A DNA stretch of 64,000 nucleotides from NCBI GenBank assembly GCA_032159565.1, contig JAVHWR010000038.1. The stretch is one strand, 5' to 3'. A program made the position numbers and the translations under genes. This document shows, piece by piece, positions 1 through 13,505 of the stretch. The notes beneath the pieces are model-generated. The model was not told where the DNA came from. It worked only from the letters and a program-made list of their open reading frames with translations, and made no database searches. Positions within the stretch are counted from its first letter, which is position 1, and each line of letters starts with the position of its first letter. This DNA is from Mycobacterium sp. GTDB taxonomy: Bacteria > Actinomycetota > Actinomycetes > Mycobacteriales > Mycobacteriaceae.

Positions 1-1221
1 AATGGGTACCTCGCGCAGGTCGAGGACGAAGTGCGCCACACGAACCAGCTTGGCTATCTGAAGAAGTACTTCGCTTCCCAGTACTACGATCCGGCCGGAT
101 TCACCGGTGCCCGCGGTCACCGTCATGGCAACCCGCTGTTCGGAAACAACCGCCAACAGGCATGCGAGACCTTCGTTTCCGGCGATCCGGTGCTGATCTC
201 GCTCAACCTCCAGATGGTTGCCGAGGCGTGCTTCACGAACCCGCTCGTGGTCGCAATGACCGAGTGGGCCGCCGCGAACGGTGATGAGGTCACCCCGACC
301 GTGTTTCTCTCGATTCAGTCCGACGAGCTGCGTCACATGGCCAATGGCTACCAGACGATCGTCTCGGTCATCGAGAACGACCACAACATGCAGTACCTGC
401 AGACCGACCTCGAGAACGCCTTCTGGATCCAGCACCGCGGATTCAGTTCGATGGTCGGACGGGCCTTCGAGTATGGCGCGGTCAACCGCGCCGAACCGTG
501 GGCGCAGACCTGGAACGACTGGGTAATCGAGGACTGGGGCGGCATCTGGATGGGCAGGTTCTCGAAGTTCGGTTTGGACTCACCGAGAAACCTGGCCGAT
601 GCGAGCCGCGACGCGTATTGGGCCCACCACGACTCCTTCGGCATCGCCTATGCCCTGTGGCCGTTCCTCGGCTACCGCCTCGAGCTGCCGAACGACACCG
701 ACAAGGAATGGTTCGAGAGGCACTACCCGGGCTGGTACACCTCGATCGGATCCACCTTCGACAGGTGGCGGGAGATCGGTGTCGAGGATCCGGGCAATCG
801 CACGAGCCCGGTTGAGCACCTCATCGAGCTCGGCAAGGTCCTGCATATCTGCCGTGTCTGTCAGTCGCCGCTCTTGAGCCTGCGCAAAACCGAAGAGCAT
901 GACGTGCAGCGGAACTCGTCCATCACCACTCGAATCATCTCCTACGGCGGTCGCAAGCACGCATTGTGCTCGGACTGGTGCGAGCGGATGTATCTGCAGG
1001 AGCCGGAACGCTACACCGGTCAGAACTTCCTGGAGATCTTCGACGGGTGGGAATTGTCCGAAATCGTCCGCGCCACAGGTGGTGTGCGCAGCGACGGGAA
1101 AACCCTGGTATCGCAACCCCATTTGAACAGCGAACGACTCTGGACGCTTGACGATCTCGCCGGCTGCGGCGTGACGGTTCGTGATCCGCATGTCGCAGGC
1201 GTCAGCTTCGAGAAGGTCTGA
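1..1221 (+). CDS. Soluble di-iron monooxygenase hydroxylase alpha subunit, MmoX/BmoX-like (5' end outside window)
   Basis: Frame 1 is open from base 1 (NGYLAQVEDEVRHTNQ). Both DExRH iron-binding motifs are present (DEVRH nt 25-39, DELRH nt 322-336), plus EACFTNPL, WAAANGDE, EDWGGIW, AYWAHHD, YPGWY and RSDGKTL, colinear with MmoX as recalled. Confidence 0.96.
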   Translation, partial: NGYLAQVEDEVRHTNQLGYLKKYFASQYYDPAGFTGARGHRHGNPLFGNNRQQACETFVSGDPVLISLNLQMVAEACFTNPLVVAMTEWAAANGDEVTPTVFLSIQSDELRHMANGYQTIVSVIENDHNMQYLQTDLENAFWIQHRGFSSMVGRAFEYGAVNRAEPWAQTWNDWVIEDWGGIWMGRFSKFGLDSPRNLADASRDAYWAHHDSFGIAYALWPFLGYRLELPNDTDKEWFERHYPGWYTSIGSTFDRWREIGVEDPGNRTSPVEHLIELGKVLHICRVCQSPLLSLRKTEEHDVQRNSSITTRIISYGGRKHALCSDWCERMYLQEPERYTGQNFLEIFDGWELSEIVRATGGVRSDGKTLVSQPHLNSERLWTLDDLAGCGVTVRDPHVAGVSFEKV

Positions 1222-1230
1222 GACACCGAC

Positions 1231-2394
1231 GTGTCCACTTCCTACCGTCGAAGTCTGCTGAACCCGGAGCACGACCAAGAGCGTGAACCGCTCGAAACTC
1301 AGCGCACCGCCGTTCATTTCGCCAACCCGTACCGCAGAAGAATCTCGGAATACGAGCAGGTGCTGCTCTACGCCCAGCCCAACCCCGACTGGATCCGTGG
1401 CGGCATCGGCGTAGGAGGGTGGACCACTCGATTTCCCGGTGGACGGGGCGCGTGGGAGAACTACTTCACCGAAGCCCGATGCACCGACTGGTTCGCCTTC
1501 AGGGATCCTGAGGGTCGCTGGCAGAGGCCGTATGTCGCCGAGAAGGCCGATCAGTGGCGCACCACCGGCCGGCTGTTCTCCACCTTCTCCAGCCACGCCC
1601 TGCACCGGGGCGCCGACTCCACCTGGATAGAAACCGTCATCGGTGAGCAGCTTGGTGCACTCGTGCTGCATGACTACGGACTCTTCATGGCGCTGACCTC
1701 TCCGGTGCGTGACAGCCTCGTCGACACCCTGCGGGTGGCGATCGTCAACTGGGCGTTGGATTACCTTGACAGCGCCCAGCAGATCCAGGCCGAGAAGGTA
1801 TTCCTGGGCCAGGTCGTCTCCGAGTCGCTCGCCCTGCTGGATCCGGCGAAGCAGCGATGGCTCAACGATCCGGCGTTCGCAGGCGCCAGAGGATTCGTCG
1901 AGCATCTCTGGCGCGACGGCTATGACCACATCGAAGTAGTCTTCGCCCTCGCGTTGATCTATGAACCGCTCTTCGGACGCTTTGTTCGCCAGGAGTACTT
2001 CTACCGGCTTGCGCCGCTGCACGGTGACCACCTAACCCAACAGATTCTTTGGCCGTCACTACGCTCCGCCGAAGCCGCCAACACCTGGACGCGTGAACTT
2101 TTCGACCGGATCCTCGGCGCGGATGCCGAATTCGGCACCTACAACCACCAACTGATGGCGTGGTGGTCCCATCGATGGCTGCCTCGCGCAGTCGACGCGA
2201 TCGCAGACATCTCGGCGCTGTTCGCGTCGACAGAGCTGTTGCGAAAGAGCCAGACGGAAACGCCTCGACAGCTCTTCGGAGAACTGGCGAACGACTGGGT
2301 CCGCGACGTCGCTCCCATATGGGGATCGGACTTCACGACGGAAAGCCTTCTCCGTCTCTATGACAACCGCCTATCCCGCGGAGGCTTGGGATGA
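1231..2394 (+). CDS. SDIMO hydroxylase beta subunit (MmoY-like)
   Basis: SEYEQVLLYAQPNPDWIRGG, TDWFAFRDP and PYVAEKADQW match the MmoY N-terminal pattern; 387 aa; GTG start. Confidence 0.93.
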   Translation: MSTSYRRSLLNPEHDQEREPLETQRTAVHFANPYRRRISEYEQVLLYAQPNPDWIRGGIGVGGWTTRFPGGRGAWENYFTEARCTDWFAFRDPEGRWQRPYVAEKADQWRTTGRLFSTFSSHALHRGADSTWIETVIGEQLGALVLHDYGLFMALTSPVRDSLVDTLRVAIVNWALDYLDSAQQIQAEKVFLGQVVSESLALLDPAKQRWLNDPAFAGARGFVEHLWRDGYDHIEVVFALALIYEPLFGRFVRQEYFYRLAPLHGDHLTQQILWPSLRSAEAANTWTRELFDRILGADAEFGTYNHQLMAWWSHRWLPRAVDAIADISALFASTELLRKSQTETPRQLFGELANDWVRDVAPIWGSDFTTESLLRLYDNRLSRGGLG

Positions 2395-2816
2395 CGGAAA
2401 TCCCTGTCACCGCCCAGAACTCACACCAGGCGGACGTGGACCGACGTATCTCGCGGGTGGACGCGCAGCAGTCGCGCGCCAACCTGTTCAGTGAGAACGG
2501 CGTGGTCGAGAGCCGTCGCGTGGTGCTGACCCTCACCAAGGCCGATGAGATCGAGGCGACCGTGGAGTGGCTCGCCGAACGGTACGCCGACGAGCCGAGT
2601 TTCACGATCCAGGACAGCGGAACCTACTACCGGATCGACTGCCTCGAAGGTTTCGAGATCGACGCCGAGGAGATAGCGGAACTCCTTGGCCGGCCCTTCT
2701 CCGTCTACGACCTCTTGGTGAACGTTTCCACCACGATCGGCCGGGCCTATGTGAACGGCGAGATATTCGCCATCACCACCGATCTCATCGGCTGGGAGCG
2801 CGAGGTGCCCCGATGA
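2391..2816 (+). CDS. SDIMO coupling/regulatory protein (MmoB-like) with N-terminal extension
   Basis: VVLTLTKADEI, EIAELLGRPFSVYDLLVNVSTTIGRAY and ITTDLIG match the MmoB/DmpM fold; ATGA overlap with the beta stop. Confidence 0.93.
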   Translation: MTEIPVTAQNSHQADVDRRISRVDAQQSRANLFSENGVVESRRVVLTLTKADEIEATVEWLAERYADEPSFTIQDSGTYYRIDCLEGFEIDAEEIAELLGRPFSVYDLLVNVSTTIGRAYVNGEIFAITTDLIGWEREVPR

Positions 2817-3838
2817 CCGAGTACAAGGTCGCGCTGACATTCGAGGGAGCCGACCGCGTCGACATCGCCTGCCGAGGTGACGAGGACGTCATCACTGCCG
2901 CTCTGAGACAGGGGTACCTACTCCTGAGCGACTGCCGCGAGGGCAGTTGTTCCACGTGCCGCGGGTTCCTGGTGGACGGCGACTATGACCAGTTGCTCAC
3001 CCACAGCCCCCACGCCCTCACCGAAGCCGAGGAGGACGACGGCCTGATCCTCGCCTGCCGCCTTCAGCCGGCGAGCGACCTGGAGATCGACTTCGACTAC
3101 CCAGCCGACCGCGTCGGGCGTTACGAGGAGGGCACGCGAACCGGGCAGATCGTGGAGGCCGAGCGCCTGTCGGAAACCGTCGCCCGGATCGTCGTTCGCA
3201 CCAACGCGGCTCAGGATCCACTCGATTGGGATCCCGGCCAATACGTTCAGGTCACTTTGCCTGCGCTCGGGGTCACCCGCGCCTACTCGATGTCAAAACC
3301 CGCAGACGGAAGCCGTCAACTGGAGTTCTTGATCCGACTACTGGCGGATGGCAAGTTCTCCGGTCATGTCGCCGCCGGGCTGGCGAAGGGTGAGCCGGTC
3401 CGGGTGCGAGGACCTCACGGTCAGTTCATCTTTCGCGGCGATCCGAAACCGGTGTTCATCGCCGGCGGGACGGGCGTCGCGCCGATCCTCGCGATTCTGC
3501 GGTCGTTGGCGCAGACCGCGCCCGACACCGAGGCAGGGGTGGTTTTCGGCGTTGGTACCGAAGCCGAACTGTTCGGCGTAGACGAGCTCTCCGAGCTGAG
3601 GCGTGTCCTGCCGAATCTCGACGTGGTGATCACCGTTGAGCGCCCGACATCGTCCTGGTCGGGTGCCGTCGGGCGAGTGACCGATCACCTCGGCGCCGAC
3701 GACCCCGCTAAGTCTTATTACCTCTGCGGGCCATCGGGGATGGCCAGCGCCGCCGAGGAACTCCTCGCAGCCGACGGAGTGGCCCGTGACCGCATCCATA
3801 TCGAACGGTTTCTCGAGACCGGAGAAGACCAGTCATGA
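2813..3838 (+). CDS. SDIMO reductase (2Fe-2S ferredoxin + FAD/NAD domains, MmoC-like)
   Basis: Start taken at ATG 2813 (ATGA overlap). DCREGSCSTC...LACR cluster ligands, RAYS and GKFS FAD motifs, FIAGGTGVAP and YLCGP NAD motifs, C-terminal ERF. Confidence 0.95.
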   Translation: MTEYKVALTFEGADRVDIACRGDEDVITAALRQGYLLLSDCREGSCSTCRGFLVDGDYDQLLTHSPHALTEAEEDDGLILACRLQPASDLEIDFDYPADRVGRYEEGTRTGQIVEAERLSETVARIVVRTNAAQDPLDWDPGQYVQVTLPALGVTRAYSMSKPADGSRQLEFLIRLLADGKFSGHVAAGLAKGEPVRVRGPHGQFIFRGDPKPVFIAGGTGVAPILAILRSLAQTAPDTEAGVVFGVGTEAELFGVDELSELRRVLPNLDVVITVERPTSSWSGAVGRVTDHLGADDPAKSYYLCGPSGMASAAEELLAADGVARDRIHIERFLETGEDQS

Positions 3839-4389
3839 CGCGAAATAGCAACGCCTCCGCGGGTGCAACGCCGCGGACCGAATACCCGCCGTTCGGAAAC
3901 CAGGCGTTGCGCCACGAGTGGACCGATCGCCTGGCACAGCTCTCGACACTCGATTCGGCACTCGCGCTTCTGCTCGATTGGCGACGCAGCCGTGAAGTCA
4001 ACGTCCTCGAAGAGGCGGACTTCCTGTGGATCGAGGCGCGCATCGAAGACCGGGTCGCAGTCCTCCGATTCGCCGAACTGTCAGGCGAGTACATCGATAC
4101 GACGGCACTCACCGGCGTTCCGATCTCGCAGGTCTGCGACACTGCACTGGCCGACGCGAGGGCGGCCGCCGACGTCCCGACACTCGAGACGGTCGTGAAC
4201 GCCTTCCGTCGCAACTTCAAGCCGCCGGTGATTCCCACTGTGCCGTTCATGCGCACCGAGACCGAGCTTGCCGAACTGCTGATGCTGCGCCGCTCCAAAG
4301 GGTGGTACGACGAGCCGCTTGACGAATTGCGACGCCGCCGCGCGGCCGTCCTGGTCCTCGAAGGAGCAGCAGGCGAACACGACAAGTAG
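3835..4389 (+). CDS. SDIMO hydroxylase gamma subunit (MmoZ-like)
   Basis: RHEWTDRLAQLSTL, DFLWIEARIEDRVAVL, FRRNFKPPVIP and WYDEPLDELRRRR align in order with recalled MmoZ motifs (DYLWIEAKLEEKVAVL, YKPPIMP, YYDTPLEELRKQR); ATGA overlap. Confidence 0.9.
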   Translation: MTRNSNASAGATPRTEYPPFGNQALRHEWTDRLAQLSTLDSALALLLDWRRSREVNVLEEADFLWIEARIEDRVAVLRFAELSGEYIDTTALTGVPISQVCDTALADARAAADVPTLETVVNAFRRNFKPPVIPTVPFMRTETELAELLMLRRSKGWYDEPLDELRRRRAAVLVLEGAAGEHDK

Positions 4390-4434
4390 ACCCGGAACCA
4401 ACCCACTTCCTCACTCGTACCAAGGAGACCGATC

Positions 4435-6003
4435 ATGCCCAACCTCGAATTCATCCAGCAATCAGGCGCATTGGGATATGCGCTTCTCTTCGGCCCGGGA
4501 ATCGTGCTGCTGCTCATCGCCCTTGCCGTCAAGGGAGCCGTCAAGACGACGCACAACTTCGTGATCTCCGGGCGGCTTCTCGGCTTCGGATTCGGTGTCG
4601 CGTCGCTCATCTCGGTGTGGACGTGGTCGATGGCGGTGATGCTGTCGTCCGCGCAGGCCTACACCTGGGGCACTTCAGGACTGGTCTGGTTCATCGTGCC
4701 CAACGGGCTCGCCGTGATCATCATGGTGCCGTTCGCCCTCAAACTTCGCCAGAAGATGCCTTCCGGCTATACCCTCGCGGAGTTCATTCGCGCACGGTTC
4801 CGGAACGGAATCAGCAGTGTGGCGACGCTGATCTTTCTGATCGGTGCTCTGCTCGGCGTCATCATGATCAACCTCGCCGGACTGGTACTGGTCATGAACA
4901 AGATCTTCGGCCTCACCCCGGTCAGCATCGTCATCACCGGCATCATCGTCGTCACCGTGTATTCCTACTTCGGTGGGCTGACCACATCCGCCGTGACCGG
5001 AACCTTGAACACTCTCCTTCTCGGTGTCGGGTCCTCGGTGGTCGTGCTCTACGCCTTGGCCAAGGCGGGCGGCGCAGAACTGGTGTTCAATGAGGTCCAC
5101 GCTCTCGGTGACCAGCACCTGAACCCCTTCAACCCGGTCACCGCCGCGAGCTTCGGCCTCGCGTTGGCTCTCGGACTACTCACGAATGTCATTGCCGACC
5201 AGTCATTCTGGCAGCGCGTATGGGCAATCAGGCCCAAGGATCTCGGCCGCAGCTTCCTGTGGGCAGGCGTGTGGTTCTACCCGATTCCTCTGGCGCTGGG
5301 CCTGCTTGGCTTCATCGGTGTCGCCTACGGCGTGACGCCCGAACAGCTGGGTTCGCTGGGGGCAGGTGCGATCGGCCCACACGTCATCGCCAGCCTCGGC
5401 CTGCCGATATTCATCATCGCCCTTTACACCCTTGTGGTCGTCAACGCGTGCTTCGCGGCCATCGACGGGGCACTGTCCGGCGTGACCTCGCTGGTCGCTG
5501 TCGACATCGTCCATCGCTACTGGCCTCAGGTGTCTGAGCGCAAGCTGCTCACCATCACCAAGACCAGCATGATCGTCGCGGCCGTAGTCGCCGGTGGTGT
5601 GGTGCTGACAGGTATCGACTACGTGAATCTCGTTACGACGGTGTACTTCTACGGCACAAGCCTTCTGATTCCGGTGACGCTCAGCATCTTCTGGTCGCGG
5701 ATGACCGGAACAGGGTACGTCGCGGGTGTGCTCGCGGGCATAGTCGTCGGTGGTCCTCTGCGCGAGACGCTCGGGCCCACGTACGGACCGCTCTTCGGAA
5801 TCATCGGGTTGATCGCTGCGTCGGCAATCGTCTCGGTGGTCGTCAGCCTGCGCGCCGACACCCAGTTCGACTTCGGCAGCTTGGCGGAAGGCAAGGCGGC
5901 GCTTCTGGAACGTGGAAACGGTGCGGCGCCGAAGAAACAAGCCGCGACGCCCGAGGCACTCGATGCCGACGACGCACGCAGCGAGCCCGCCGGACAGCAG
6001 TAA
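4435..6003 (+). CDS. Sodium:solute symporter family transporter, DUR3 (urea/polyamine)-like
   Basis: 522 aa with about 13 hydrophobic segments; ASLISVWTWSMAVMLSSAQAYTWG, GYTLAEFIRARF, YSYFGGL and DQSFWQR; AAGGAG SD upstream. Confidence 0.85.
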   Translation: MPNLEFIQQSGALGYALLFGPGIVLLLIALAVKGAVKTTHNFVISGRLLGFGFGVASLISVWTWSMAVMLSSAQAYTWGTSGLVWFIVPNGLAVIIMVPFALKLRQKMPSGYTLAEFIRARFRNGISSVATLIFLIGALLGVIMINLAGLVLVMNKIFGLTPVSIVITGIIVVTVYSYFGGLTTSAVTGTLNTLLLGVGSSVVVLYALAKAGGAELVFNEVHALGDQHLNPFNPVTAASFGLALALGLLTNVIADQSFWQRVWAIRPKDLGRSFLWAGVWFYPIPLALGLLGFIGVAYGVTPEQLGSLGAGAIGPHVIASLGLPIFIIALYTLVVVNACFAAIDGALSGVTSLVAVDIVHRYWPQVSERKLLTITKTSMIVAAVVAGGVVLTGIDYVNLVTTVYFYGTSLLIPVTLSIFWSRMTGTGYVAGVLAGIVVGGPLRETLGPTYGPLFGIIGLIAASAIVSVVVSLRADTQFDFGSLAEGKAALLERGNGAAPKKQAATPEALDADDARSEPAGQQ

Positions 6004-6030
6004 TACCCAGAACAGTAGAAAGGCACTCTC

Positions 6031-6369
6031 GTGGTCATCTTTTACATCGGCGCAACCATCGGCTTGGTTCTCGCCGTCCTCTATCTGATCGTCGGCGCCC
6101 TCAGCTTTCTCCGGATCCGGCGAGAGTTGGTGGCAGGCAACAGTGTGGTTCTGGGGGAAGAGACAGACTCCTCCGAGATCGCCCTTGTGCCCGGCTTCAC
6201 ATGGAAGGCGACCTTGGCCGTCCTGACGTCGTTCGTCTTACTGGTCATCGCTTCCTACAGCGGCGTGTTCTGGTACGTGCTCGCGTTGAGCGGACTCGGT
6301 ACAGCAGCGGCGGTAATCGTTGCCTTCGTTCTCGAGCTGCGTGGCGACCGCACCGGGACCGCCGCGTGA
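6031..6369 (+). CDS. Small membrane protein (about 3 TM helices), unknown function
   Basis: 112 aa, hydrophobic; GAAAGG SD before the GTG; its stop overlaps the next start (GTGA); fills the gap within the operon. Confidence 0.75.
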   Translation: MVIFYIGATIGLVLAVLYLIVGALSFLRIRRELVAGNSVVLGEETDSSEIALVPGFTWKATLAVLTSFVLLVIASYSGVFWYVLALSGLGTAAAVIVAFVLELRGDRTGTAA

Positions 6370-7685
6370 CCAAGAAAAAGGCGCACCTTCTGGGTTTCGT
6401 TCAGCACGGTGTGATGAACCACGCGTCGACGATGTGGGCGCATCCGCGCGACAAGGTCGGCTATCACTGGTCGCGGCCGGAGTATTGGCGCGATCTCGGC
6501 GGGATCATGGAGCGTGGCCTGTTCGACGCGATGTTCATCGCCGACGAGTTGGCCCCGTACACCACCTATAAGGGCAACTCGGATCCGGTCGTGAAGTATG
6601 CCGGACAGTGTCCGGTGCACGAGCCCGCAACTCTGGTGCCGATCATCGGGGCGTTCACCAAACACCTCGGGATCGGCATCACGCTGTCGACATCGTTTGT
6701 GCCGCCGTACATGATGGCCCGCCACCTGTCCTCGCTCGACCACCTGACCAACGGCCGGGTCGGCTGGAACATTGTGACGTCGTACTCCAAGAGCGAGTTC
6801 CAGGCGATGGGCAAGGACAACCTCACGCCTCGGGACAAGCGTTACGAAGTGGTCGAGGAGTACATGCAACTGCTGTACCAGCTGTGGGACTCCTGGGATG
6901 ACGACGCGATCGTCTACGACCGCGAGAATGGGATCTTCGCCGATCCCTCGAAGGTGCGCGAAGTCGACTTCCAAGGCGAGTTCTTCAAGTCGAAGGGGCG
7001 CCACTTCGTCGCACCGTCACCGCAGAAGCGGCCGGTGCTGTGGCAGGCCGGCTCCTCGGATCAGGGCCGCGATTTCGCCTCCAAACACGCGGAATCCGTG
7101 TTCGGCATCTTCCCTACCCCCAAGAGCATGCGGGCCTATGCCGACGACATCCGCACCCGAGCCGACGACCACGGACGCGATCCCGATTCGGTGAAGCTGA
7201 TCTACGGTCTGCAGACCATCATCGATCGGGACAAATCCCGCGCGAACGACAAGTACGCCGAGTTCGTCGAGAAGGTGCAGATCGAGAGCGCACTGGGAAT
7301 CCTTTCTGGCCATACGGGATTCGACTTCTCCACACTCGGCCTAGACGACAACGTCGTCGATGCGGACGTGCAGGGTATCCGCGGTCTGTTCGACGCCATC
7401 CTGGAGGCCAAGGACGGCGCACCGGTGACCGTCCGTGAGGCCGCGCAGATCTATGGAGTCTCGATGGGCGCGCCGGTCGCGGTTGGCACACCCTTGGACG
7501 TCGCCGACCAGATGGAGCAGTACCTCGACGACGGCGGCTGCAACGGCTTCATGTTGCTTGCCACCGATACGCCCGGCTGCTTCAACGACGTGACCGAGCT
7601 GCTGGTGCCCGAACTTCAGCGGCGCGGACGGTACCGGACGCGCTATCCCGGAACGACTTTGCGGGAAAGCCTGCAGGAGTATTAG
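6366..7685 (+). CDS. NtaA/SnaA/DszA/DmoA-family FMN-dependent (LLM class) monooxygenase
   Basis: Start GTG 6366. FDAMFIAD, HEPATLV, TKHLGIGITLSTS, SSLDHLTNGRVGWNIVTS, QAGSSDQGRDFASKHAE and LVPELQRRG. Confidence 0.92.
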   Translation: MTKKKAHLLGFVQHGVMNHASTMWAHPRDKVGYHWSRPEYWRDLGGIMERGLFDAMFIADELAPYTTYKGNSDPVVKYAGQCPVHEPATLVPIIGAFTKHLGIGITLSTSFVPPYMMARHLSSLDHLTNGRVGWNIVTSYSKSEFQAMGKDNLTPRDKRYEVVEEYMQLLYQLWDSWDDDAIVYDRENGIFADPSKVREVDFQGEFFKSKGRHFVAPSPQKRPVLWQAGSSDQGRDFASKHAESVFGIFPTPKSMRAYADDIRTRADDHGRDPDSVKLIYGLQTIIDRDKSRANDKYAEFVEKVQIESALGILSGHTGFDFSTLGLDDNVVDADVQGIRGLFDAILEAKDGAPVTVREAAQIYGVSMGAPVAVGTPLDVADQMEQYLDDGGCNGFMLLATDTPGCFNDVTELLVPELQRRGRYRTRYPGTTLRESLQEY

Positions 7686-9190
7686 CAGTCGTCGTGTCTG
7701 GCTTCGCGCCAGGCCCGCTCGAACGGCAGCCGCCATGCGTTGGGCGCGATCAGCTGGTGAATCGCGTTGGGCCCCCACGTGCCCTGCGGGTACGACTTGA
7801 CCGCCGGCGGGTCGGACAGCAGGCTCTCCGAACGCTCCCACAGCGACTCGATGCCCTCCGCGGTGGTGAACAGTGTGTGATCGCCGCGCATCGCGTCGAG
7901 GATCAGGCGCTCGTAGGCCTCGAGCACGTCGTTCATGGTGTCGGTCTCTTGAGTCGAGAACTGCATCGAGAGCTTGTCGAGCTTCATCCCGGGTCCTGGG
8001 CGCTTGCCGTAGAAGGACAGCGACACCTTGGAGTTGTCGGCGAGATCGAAGGTGAGGTGGTCGGGGCCTTGGGAACCGACGCCCGAGCCCGACGGGAACA
8101 TGGACCGCGGCGCCTCTTTGAACGCAATGGAGATGACGCGAATGCCCTCGGCCATACGCTTTCCCGTGCGGAGGTAGATCGGTACCCCGGCCCAACGCCA
8201 GTTGTCGATACCCACCTTGAGCGCGATGAACGTCTCGGTATCGGAATCGCGGGCGACACCTTTATTCTTGCGGTACCCCACGTACTGCCCTCGGACAACT
8301 TTGGCCGGGTCGACAGGCAACATCGAGCGGAACACCTTGTTCTTCTCTTCGCTGATGGCGCGGGGTTCGAGTGCCGTCGGCGGCTCCATCACGACGAACG
8401 CCATCACCTGGAAAAGGTGGGTGACCACCATGTCCTTGTAGGCGCCGGTGCTCTCGTAGAAGTTGGCCCGTTCGTCCAGCCCCAGGGTCTCCGGGATGTC
8501 GATCTGGATATGGTCGATGAAGTTGCGGTTCCAGATCGGCTCGAACAGACCGTTGGCGAACCTGAAGGCCAGGATGTTCTGCGCGGCCTCCTTGCCGAGA
8601 AAGTGGTCGATGCGGAAGATCTGACTTTCGTCAAACGTCTCGTGGACGAAGTCGTTGAGTTCGACGGCGCTCTCCAAGTCGGTGCCGAACGGCTTCTCCA
8701 TGACGACCCGCGATCGCTCCACCAGCTTCGCGTCACGCAGCATGGTGATGACCGCGCGGGCGGCTTTCGGCGGTACCGACAGATAGTGGAGACGGCGGAC
8801 GTCCGGCCCCAGCTTTTCCTCGGCTTCCTCGACGGCGGCTGCAAGTGCCTCGGGACCCGTGCTCTGAGGGACGTAGGTGACCCTCTCGGCGAACCGGGCC
8901 CACTGTTCCTCGGTGAGCTTGTGCGTTCCGAAGTCGTCGATTGCCTCTTTGGCGACTTCGAGGAACTCGTCTCGGGAAATCTCCTCCAGCGACGTCGCGA
9001 CGATCTCGATGTTGGGTGCGAGTTCGGACTGGCCGAGATAGGCGAGCCCGGGAATCAATTTCCGTCTCGCAAGGTCACCGGTCGCGCCGAACAACACGAC
9101 GACGTGCGGATCGACCGCGAAGTCGTCGTTACGGCGTGCGCGCGCGCCCGGCCCCGGGTAGGAGATCGTCTGCGGTTTGCTTGTCGCCAC
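7682..9190 (-). CDS. zwf: Glucose-6-phosphate 1-dehydrogenase
   Basis: GATGDLARRKL, RVVMEKPFG, RIDHFLGKE, WAGVPIYLRTGKR and AYERLI. GTG 9190 has a GGAAGG SD; ATG 9199 is the alternative start. Confidence 0.95.
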   Translation of the reverse strand: MATSKPQTISYPGPGARARRNDDFAVDPHVVVLFGATGDLARRKLIPGLAYLGQSELAPNIEIVATSLEEISRDEFLEVAKEAIDDFGTHKLTEEQWARFAERVTYVPQSTGPEALAAAVEEAEEKLGPDVRRLHYLSVPPKAARAVITMLRDAKLVERSRVVMEKPFGTDLESAVELNDFVHETFDESQIFRIDHFLGKEAAQNILAFRFANGLFEPIWNRNFIDHIQIDIPETLGLDERANFYESTGAYKDMVVTHLFQVMAFVVMEPPTALEPRAISEEKNKVFRSMLPVDPAKVVRGQYVGYRKNKGVARDSDTETFIALKVGIDNWRWAGVPIYLRTGKRMAEGIRVISIAFKEAPRSMFPSGSGVGSQGPDHLTFDLADNSKVSLSFYGKRPGPGMKLDKLSMQFSTQETDTMNDVLEAYERLILDAMRGDHTLFTTAEGIESLWERSESLLSDPPAVKSYPQGTWGPNAIHQLIAPNAWRLPFERAWREARHDDC

Positions 9191-9419
9191 GCTCGGCATC
9201 CTTCCACCGCCGGATTCTTCACGCACGCTTTGCCGCCCTCCGCCACCGCGCAGTCACAAGCCAGACAACCTATCGTTACCCCTGATCGGCGCCGGCCAAT
9301 CGTCTCGTGCCTGGTACTGCCACCGCCGTCAATTTCTCAGCAACCCAATATGCAACCGGTGTACTCTCCGGGCGGTTGGGGACCACGCGGCGACGCACCT
9401 ACCGGGACGAGGCTGTGCC

Positions 9420-13453: not shown

Positions 13454-13505
13454 AGGGGGAGGTGGCCCAGTTCGGGGAGTGGGGTGACTGCTGACCAGGG
13501 GTGAT

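Follow-up and report, generated by a model that had tools for sequence, protein, structure and literature searches.

What does an enzyme of the soluble methane monooxygenase (sMMO) lineage do on a mycobacterial chromosome, lodged between two ribosomal protein operons and tied to a transporter gene? The question is raised by a 64,000-nt stretch of Mycobacterium sp. DNA (GenBank assembly GCA_032159565.1, contig JAVHWR010000038.1), here called the window (G000:C62:16863-80862), which opens within the genes of a soluble di-iron monooxygenase (SDIMO). Group 3 SDIMOs hydroxylate methane and short alkanes, and are valued biocatalysts that are difficult to express; to our knowledge, all characterised members act on hydrophobic gases. 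Judged by its gene content and phylogeny, the enzyme of the window is an intact, chromosomal, five-component group 3 SDIMO in a separate, uncharacterised clade, sister to the clade of the Smo enzymes from Mycolicibacterium chubuense NBB4 and Rhodococcus sp. ZPP. From gene context and pocket residues we infer a substrate class that differs from gaseous alkanes, and our main reading, to which we would give a probability of roughly 45%, is that the physiological substrate is a small polar methyl-sulfur compound used for sulfur assimilation.

Group 3 membership and a separate clade

A first, sequence-only reading of the window had described a five-component operon at 1-4389, in the order alpha-beta-coupling protein-reductase-gamma. 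Pfam matches bear out all five components and their order; the limits did not stand, since the alpha gene starts 377 nt ahead of the window and the operon runs on to 7685 through a symporter, a small open reading frame (ORF) and a luciferase-like monooxygenase (LLM). All of these genes lie on the + strand. The 3' part of the hydroxylase alpha subunit (MmoX/SmoX-like) occupies 1..1221 and matches Pfam Phenol_Hydrox; in upstream DNA retrieved as locus L003, where the window position is the L003 position minus 12000, the full gene encodes 532 aa (L003:11623-13221 = G000:C62:16485-18083). A PDB search returned the MmoX crystal-structure sequences at E=3e-182 and the phenol hydroxylase alpha subunit at E=5e-24. 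The beta subunit (MmoY-like; 1231..2394, 387 aa) matches Phenol_Hydrox at E=3.6e-36 and NCBIfam MmoY with 327 bits against a cut-off of 700. Next comes the coupling or effector protein (MmoB-like; 2391..2816, 141 aa), in which the Pfam MmoB_DmpM domain spans residues 43-128, in keeping with the N-terminal tail of about 40 residues noticed earlier. The NADH oxidoreductase (MmoC-like; 2813..3838, 341 aa) carries a [2Fe-2S] domain along with flavin- and nucleotide-binding domains (Pfam Fer2, FAD_binding_6 and NAD_binding_1; NCBIfam MmoC E=1.9e-88), and the gamma subunit (3835..4389, 184 aa) is of the MmoZ type, as had been proposed (Pfam MeMO_Hyd_G E=1.2e-27; NCBIfam MmoZ E=2.4e-29). The four NCBIfam models of sMMO subunits that match beta, the coupling protein, the reductase and gamma all score under their equivalog cut-offs, and alpha has no such match. 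Three ATGA overlaps, at the beta/coupling protein, coupling protein/reductase and reductase/gamma junctions, can be read directly in the sequence.

The placement of the enzyme was examined by maximum likelihood (IQ-TREE) with 71 alpha subunits, group 4-6-like sequences serving as the root. Group 3 is monophyletic (100/100), and inside it an actinobacterial supergroup (95/95) divides into three clades. Clade I consists of metagenomic sequences and one metagenome-assembled genome (MAG). Clade II (100/100, 12 rows) holds the characterised Smo enzymes of NBB4 and ZPP, together with those of Mycobacterium sp. ENV421 and Candidatus Mycobacterium methanotrophicum. Clade III (100/100, stem 0.24, n=23) unites the window with ten Mycolicibacterium-type and twelve environmental sequences.

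Sequence identities agree with this picture. In a scan with one genome per species (NBB4 and ZPP being compared through their plasmids), alpha is 87-91% identical to its counterparts in Mycolicibacterium moriokaense GAS496, M. elephantis DSM 44368, M. stellerae CECT 8783, Mycobacterium sp. 2YAF39, Mycobacterium sp. RTGN6 and five MAGs, and 74-79% identical in two MAGs binned as Piscinibacter and Oscillatoriales. Identity is 64% to ENV421, 62% to ZPP, 61% to NBB4 SmoX, 58% to Ca. M. methanotrophicum, 50-55% in the hosts of butane monooxygenase (BMO) and sMMO, and about 51% to MmoX itself. The window alpha thus lies outside the characterised Smo clade, with the nearest characterised member 61-62% identical. 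Among 48 sampled genomes of the genus, a clade III alpha occurs in the window's genome only.

Membership in group 3 has been set at an alpha identity of at least 50% (PMC11825192). Six iron ligands, an MmoZ-type gamma subunit, an MmoB-type effector, a one-polypeptide reductase, alpha identities of 51-64% and the position in the tree all place the enzyme there, and the tree and the gene order XYBCZ, common to the window and both the NBB4 and ZPP plasmids, uphold the proposal of a group 3 SDIMO with an NBB4-like arrangement. The suspected separate branch likewise emerges as the 100/100 clade of 23, with no high-identity nesting in a characterised clade (61-64%). The description of the subunits as clearly diverged is right in that they form a clade of their own, but the divergence is only relative, alpha still lying within the 50% identity limit of group 3. 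Clade III probably falls within subgroup A of a 2025 review, which mentions uncharacterised Mycobacterium sequences in that subgroup and discusses only alkane oxidation of the Smo type (PMC11825192).

Is the enzyme equipped for catalysis, and for catalysis on what? The diiron centre, as predicted from the alignment, is intact: the ligands E114, E144, H147, E209, E243 and H246 (MmoX numbering) are invariant in the window and all 70 aligned relatives. The pocket residues L110, F192, T213, N214 and F282 are also retained. Elsewhere in the pocket, S117, L151, N184, A188 and V217 are invariant in 23/23 clade III alphas; S117, N184, A188 and V217 are confined to clade III among the group 3 clades sampled, and L151 is seen elsewhere only in 4/10 clade I sequences. 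From sMMO to clade III the changes are A117S, C151L, M184N, F188A and I217V, with G208 becoming A208. F188 is one of the gate residues in sMMO between the active-site cavity and the next cavity, and its replacement by alanine, along with the added serine and asparagine, would make the clade III pocket more open and more polar.

A further mark of the clade is what it lacks. No mmoD-like ORF had been noticed between the genes, and indeed the overlapping junctions leave no gap for one; tblastn with four MmoD-like queries found none in 14 clade III loci or in the whole genome of the window. Such ORFs do occur in the neighbouring clades. On the NBB4 plasmid pMYCCH.01, an unannotated ORF between smoB1 and smoC1 (L084:12401-12751, with an ATGA overlap with smoC1) aligns with Methylococcus capsulatus MmoD over 53 residues (BLASTP E=2e-6), and precomputed annotation gives a weak MmoD match to the small effector-reductase ORF in one clade I and one clade II locus. 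By tblastn, every clade II locus, that of Ca. M. methanotrophicum among them, has an MmoD-like ORF, as do clade I locus L108, L020, BMO and sMMO; L014, L016, L017, L018, L085 and L109 are among the carriers. A Pfam scan of the small ORFs of NBB4, L108 and L109 gave no MmoD match, from a library that apparently lacks PF27775. Their occurrence in clades I and II, and absence in clade III, makes the loss of MmoD a derived feature of clade III rather than a shared trait of Smo enzymes. The presence of an MmoD-like ORF in Smo clusters contrasts with a statement in the literature that Smo has no accessory protein.

These features bear on a possible role in facultative methanotrophy, with the enzyme acting as a true methane monooxygenase like that of Ca. 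M. methanotrophicum or strain MM-1. Mycobacterial methanotrophs with sMMO only do exist (PMC12366331), and F282, L110 and F192 are as in sMMO. However, the Ca. M. methanotrophicum enzyme sits in clade II, and its alpha shares only 58% identity with that of the window; C151, F188, M184 and G208 of sMMO are all replaced; MmoD is absent; and the symporter linkage described below has no role in methane oxidation. A methanotrophic function is therefore very improbable.

Linkage to a symporter and the probable substrate

Three genes follow gamma. The first, after a gap of 45 nt, encodes a sodium:solute symporter family transporter of a DUR3-like branch (4435..6003, +, 522 aa; Pfam SSF) and has its own AAGGAG ribosome-binding site. 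After another 27 nt comes a small hydrophobic membrane protein (6031..6369, +, 112 aa), the conserved partner of the symporter, and a GTGA overlap joins this to the last gene (6366..7685, +, 439 aa, GTG start), which encodes an FMNH2-dependent LLM of the NtaA/DmoA family (NCBIfam TIGR03860 E=5e-148, above cut-off). All of the genes are intact and their junctions overlapping or tightly spaced, and by these signs alpha through the LLM is an eight-gene operon that ends at 7685. A promoter and terminator scan of 1-9400 gave no site above shuffled expectation. A single transcript is likely, considering the gaps of only 45 and 27 nt, the GTGA overlap and the lack of a terminator above chance.

Searches against solved structures give some indication of what these proteins might handle. 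The only clear relatives of the symporter are the DUR3 urea symporters (PDB, E=6e-17), while the best relative of the LLM is the dimethyl-sulfide monooxygenase DmoA (6ak1, E=6.7e-98), with LadA, DszA and YtnJ next in rank. A Pfam scan of the 112-aa protein found nothing significant. The Dms1-3 oxygenases of Acinetobacter baylyi, which act on dimethyl sulfide (DMS) and dimethyl sulfoxide (DMSO), were considered as members of the LLM's family and set aside: they are group D flavin monooxygenases, and no group C enzyme screened there oxidised DMS.

The association of symporter and SDIMO is a property of the clade. The symporter stands beside every clade III locus that reaches far enough, in 8 mycobacterial or MAG loci and 5 independent environmental contexts, and the link spans Actinomycetota and Proteobacteria. 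Three arrangements occur: downstream of gamma, downstream after a Fe/Mn superoxide dismutase gene, and directly upstream of alpha. In environmental clade III loci an ORF of 102-118 aa follows the symporter, with no significant Pfam family (three aligned). No such symporter lies within 10 kb at any of about 70 other group 3 loci (0 of ~70). The downstream genes of the window had been noted as not being the alcohol and aldehyde dehydrogenases of an alkane pathway, and this holds for all clade III loci, the symporter and small membrane protein standing there instead: alcohol dehydrogenase, aldehyde dehydrogenase and GroEL genes were found in none of them, and a Zn-alcohol dehydrogenase, aldehyde dehydrogenase or GroEL gene is present at clade I, clade II and ZPP loci. 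The checks that the sequence-only reading had proposed, namely retrieving the upstream sequence, building an alpha phylogeny and surveying the neighbourhoods of homologues, thus yielded the full alpha gene, the separate clade III and the symporter-linked loci.

With this evidence in hand, one can weigh another account, in which the enzyme is an ordinary C2-C4 alkane/alkene monooxygenase that serves carbon and energy supply like NBB4 SmoXYB1C1Z, and has no connection with the symporter and flavin monooxygenase encoded next to it. NBB4 and ZPP share its subunit set and XYBCZ order, alpha is 61-64% identical within the same supergroup (95/95), and the hydrophobic pocket residues L110, F192, T213 and F282 are kept; moreover, the symporter module is also found alone and the family is promiscuous. 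Set against this, the symporter and small protein accompany clade III in three arrangements and in two phyla, and no other group 3 locus; the dehydrogenase and GroEL genes of clades I and II are missing; the two short gaps, the GTGA overlap and the lack of an above-chance terminator favour one transcript; and F188A, M184N and A117S are clade-wide. On balance we regard the account as unlikely, though far from negligible.

The symporter module has a life of its own, and its other settings are informative. In the sample of 48 genomes, the symporter occurs without an SDIMO as an orthologue (90-94%) in three genomes and as a 50% variant in four. The small ORF follows the symporter in 7/7 of these modules and a DmoA-like LLM (93-95% identical) comes next in 6/7; in two of the species that lack the SDIMO, genes for a CysK-like cysteine synthase and a further LLM lie ahead of the module. 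The LLM is 93-95% identical across species where the adjacent symporter is only about 50% and the small ORF 31-37% identical (L104-L107 against window 4435-7685), which points to two deeply diverged types of transporter pair.

A metagenome scan with a symporter alignment, followed by a tblastn panel and ORF clustering, added 80 loci. Their recurrent core comprises a divergent LysR regulator (16 loci), a flavin reductase, the symporter and the small ORF, and tblastn places the small membrane protein in 21 metagenome loci. An SfnG-like LLM of about 360 aa is present in 24/80, with dimethylsulfone monooxygenase as its best NCBIfam match (E=1e-55, 189 bits against a cut-off of 383), and LLMs of the NtaA/DmoA family are of the window type in 26 loci and of a second type in 34. 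SDIMO genes are joined to the module in only nine loci of this sample, all of mycobacterial type. Near clade III SDIMOs, TauD is encoded in 2 loci (one with 292 bits against a taurine dioxygenase cut-off of 313); a protein of the TauE sulfite-exporter family, a 1-Cys peroxiredoxin and a cysteine synthase that scores above its cut-off are also among the neighbours. Judged by gene order, the symporter module seems to have recruited clade III SDIMOs more than once.

Taken together, these partners give the module the look of a system that takes up a small polar methyl-sulfur compound and cleaves its C-S bond. Clade III may then be, as a tentative proposal, a transporter-coupled branch of group 3 whose substrate is the imported compound or a related methyl-sulfur compound of the dimethylsulfone, DMSO, DMS or methanesulfonate type, with the DmoA-like partner freeing the sulfur. 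The symporter would import the substrate or be metabolically tied to the SDIMO, the reductase would pass electrons from NADH to the hydroxylase, as in sMMO, and the SDIMO would either oxygenate the sulfur or hydroxylate an adjacent methyl group. The flavin monooxygenase would then cleave the C-S bond, and the freed sulfur would feed cysteine synthesis. The likeliest candidates would be methylated organosulfur compounds of the DMS/DMSO/dimethylsulfone/methanesulfonate series; dimethylsulfone or DMSO is proposed because these fit the urea-transporter relative and the SfnG/DmoA-like partners, and sulfur assimilation because a cysteine synthase fits. A precedent is the group 2 SDIMO DsoABCDEF of Acinetobacter sp. 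20B, which is reported to serve sulfur assimilation by oxidising DMS to DMSO and dimethylsulfone (PMC13352529).

Another conceivable substrate is a small polar nitrogen compound (a urea or amide derivative, a methylated amine or a ureide), imported by a DUR3-like route and oxidatively dealkylated by the SDIMO and an NtaA-type monooxygenase. After all, DUR3 urea symporters are the only clear structural relatives of the transporter, the NtaA/DmoA family includes the C-N cleaving NtaA and EmoA, and the SfnG-like LLM and flavin reductase also give weaker RutA and RutF matches. However, genes for an amidase, a urease, an amine dehydrogenase or ammonium assimilation were not found among the annotated neighbours; the recurrent ones (cysteine synthase, TauD, TauE and 1-Cys peroxiredoxin) speak for sulfur; and the SfnG score is twice the RutA score. 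A nitrogen substrate is accordingly improbable.

Several points also weigh against a methyl-sulfur substrate. Other species of the genus have the symporter module, presumably functional, without an SDIMO, so that genes lying together may still serve different substrates. The SfnG-like and TauD matches fall under their curated equivalog cut-offs, which leaves the sulfur assignment to family resemblance, and the DUR3 relatives carry urea and could equally indicate nitrogen compounds. DMS itself requires no transporter. The cysteine and methionine content of clade III alphas is not below that of sMMO, so that no depletion of the sulfate-starvation type is seen. Finally, the closest characterised enzymes, NBB4 Smo and ZPP, oxidise C2-C4 alkanes and alkenes (PMC11825192), and, sMMO-type pockets being promiscuous, alkane activity is likely at least in vitro.

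If the methyl-sulfur reading is true, clade III would provide the first case of a group 3 SDIMO whose physiological role lies outside hydrocarbon oxidation, and terrestrial sulfur cycling would gain a new route. Such a role would also widen the chemistry and ecology of the sMMO lineage and bear on how methane activity evolved from Smo-like ancestors. Clade III enzymes are conserved across several Mycolicibacterium species in culture as well as in soil metagenomes; being encoded on a mycobacterial chromosome, the window's enzyme is a realistic choice for expression in M. smegmatis, so far the sole generalist host in which a group 3 SDIMO has been expressed (PMC11825192). A literature search for SDIMOs with solute symporters found no paper, and none describing a function for clade III; one for the symporter with dimethylsulfone, methanesulfonate or DmoA found nothing relevant to this system.

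The island, its flanks and its upstream region

Where does the operon sit? The first gene of the spc operon, rplN, starts at 13501, 9.1 kb past gamma, in line with the earlier estimate of about 10 kb, and on the upstream side about 0.94 kb separates alpha from the end of rpsQ, the last S10-operon gene. With rpsQ upstream and rplN downstream, the cluster is an insertion in the chromosomal S10-spc gap itself. The operon is met at its end by a convergent paralogue of the glucose-6-phosphate dehydrogenase gene zwf (7682..9226, -; Pfam G6PD_N/G6PD_C, NCBIfam zwf), whose product is 37% identical to that of the genome's other zwf (C171). This paralogue is conserved in the SDIMO carriers L004, L005, L007, L012, L114, L120 and L142 and is not found beside SDIMO-less symporter modules; it may supply reductant, or may merely be part of the inserted island. 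Between it and rplN lie arylsulfatase and formylglycine-generating-enzyme-like genes, much as atsA and a formylglycine-generating-enzyme gene presumably occupy the same gap in M. tuberculosis.

Upstream of alpha, two motifs are conserved among carriers, TCAnnnCGAGnCAAAC (L003:11535-11550), about 85 nt ahead of the alpha ATG, and GCTCAyCGTGATTGCAA (L003:11340-11356), about 280 nt ahead of it. Both are unique in the 6.2-Mb genome, and they are candidate operator or promoter elements. The idea that they form a shared operator was also considered; with a single genomic occurrence, and none upstream of the SDIMO-less symporter modules, they are uninformative on a regulon. An Rfam scan of the 1.6 kb upstream of alpha (E<=1) found no riboswitch or known RNA element. 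The island of the window carries no regulator gene, and strain 2YAF39 has a divergent GAF-domain gene upstream of alpha. Between rpsQ and alpha there is also a 105-aa ORF with no family match (L003:11033-11350, window -967 to -650), which may be the remnant of an ORF of 683-685 aa that follows rpsQ in two relatives (L005:7722-9773, L007:2644-4701).

The island varies among carriers in both position and content. Its upstream neighbours in M. stellerae are cysS and a SpoU methylase gene, and RTGN6 has yet another set of genes there (L010 and L011, compared with L004, L021 and the window); such differing flanks indicate that the island has moved or been inserted more than once. In M. elephantis DSM 44368 (L008:64-5580), alpha alone remains as an intact ORF (88% identical), followed by a TetR regulator, a DUF2306 protein and an arylsulfatase, and the island has apparently decayed there, as everything from beta to zwf is missing. 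In some environmental clade III operons the reductase has shrunk to a 113-aa ferredoxin-only protein or a 230-aa protein (L086:13192-13533, L087:9105-9446, L088:8364-9056), so electrons must reach these enzymes from another reductase; near the operon, L086 has a Flavin_Reduct gene and encodes a TIGR03862 flavoprotein. The window's genome also has a second SDIMO alpha fragment at the end of a short contig (G000:C144:2-1042, -), 33% identical to the window alpha and probably from a group 5 or 6 type enzyme.

Comparison with known systems

How does the window's system compare with those already described? With the sMMO (MmoXYBZDC) of Methylococcus capsulatus Bath and Methylosinus trichosporium OB3b it shares the fold, the diiron ligands, a gamma subunit, a long-tailed MmoB and an MmoC-type reductase. 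The order mmoXYBZDC differs from the XYBCZ of the window, in which the reductase precedes gamma; MmoD is lacking and no MmoG or MmoR is encoded nearby; C151, M184, F188 and G208 of sMMO correspond to L151, N184, A188 and A208; and the host is not a proteobacterial methanotroph.

DsoABCDEF provides a parallel at the level of functional hypothesis only, as an SDIMO in methyl-sulfur assimilation rather than carbon catabolism (PMC13352529). It belongs to another SDIMO group, has six components and no MmoZ-type gamma, and has no reported symporter link. As for DmoA of Hyphomicrobium sulfonivorans and SfnG of Pseudomonas, the last gene of the operon is of the NtaA/DmoA family, and SfnG-like genes with a flavin reductase recur in the metagenome modules. 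LadA and DszA, however, score nearly as high against the window LLM, so that it is a DmoA-family member rather than an established DmoA orthologue; and, DmoA and SfnG being two-component flavin monooxygenases, a further difference is that the window operon has no flavin reductase gene.

The closest known systems are SmoXYB1C1Z of M. chubuense NBB4 (pMYCCH.01) and the Rhodococcus sp. ZPP cluster (pRZP1), both C2-C4 alkane/alkene monooxygenases of group 3 subgroup A. They have in common with the window the five component types, the alpha-beta-coupling protein-reductase-gamma order, an actinobacterial host and E240Q. The NBB4 and ZPP clusters are borne on plasmids, whereas that of the window is chromosomal, in the S10-spc gap. 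The NBB4 type has an MmoD-like ORF between the coupling protein and reductase genes, which in the window overlap by ATGA without it. Unlike the NBB4/ZPP type, the window's SDIMO shares its operon with the genes for a symporter, a small membrane protein and an LLM resembling DmoA, and has no alcohol dehydrogenase, aldehyde dehydrogenase or GroEL neighbours. In the pocket, the changes from NBB4/ZPP to the window are A117S, T/V151L, F188A and I217V, and F282 is kept. The machinery, then, is of the known group 3 type, while the architecture, with no MmoD and with coupling to a transporter, the pocket and the likely substrate class differ.

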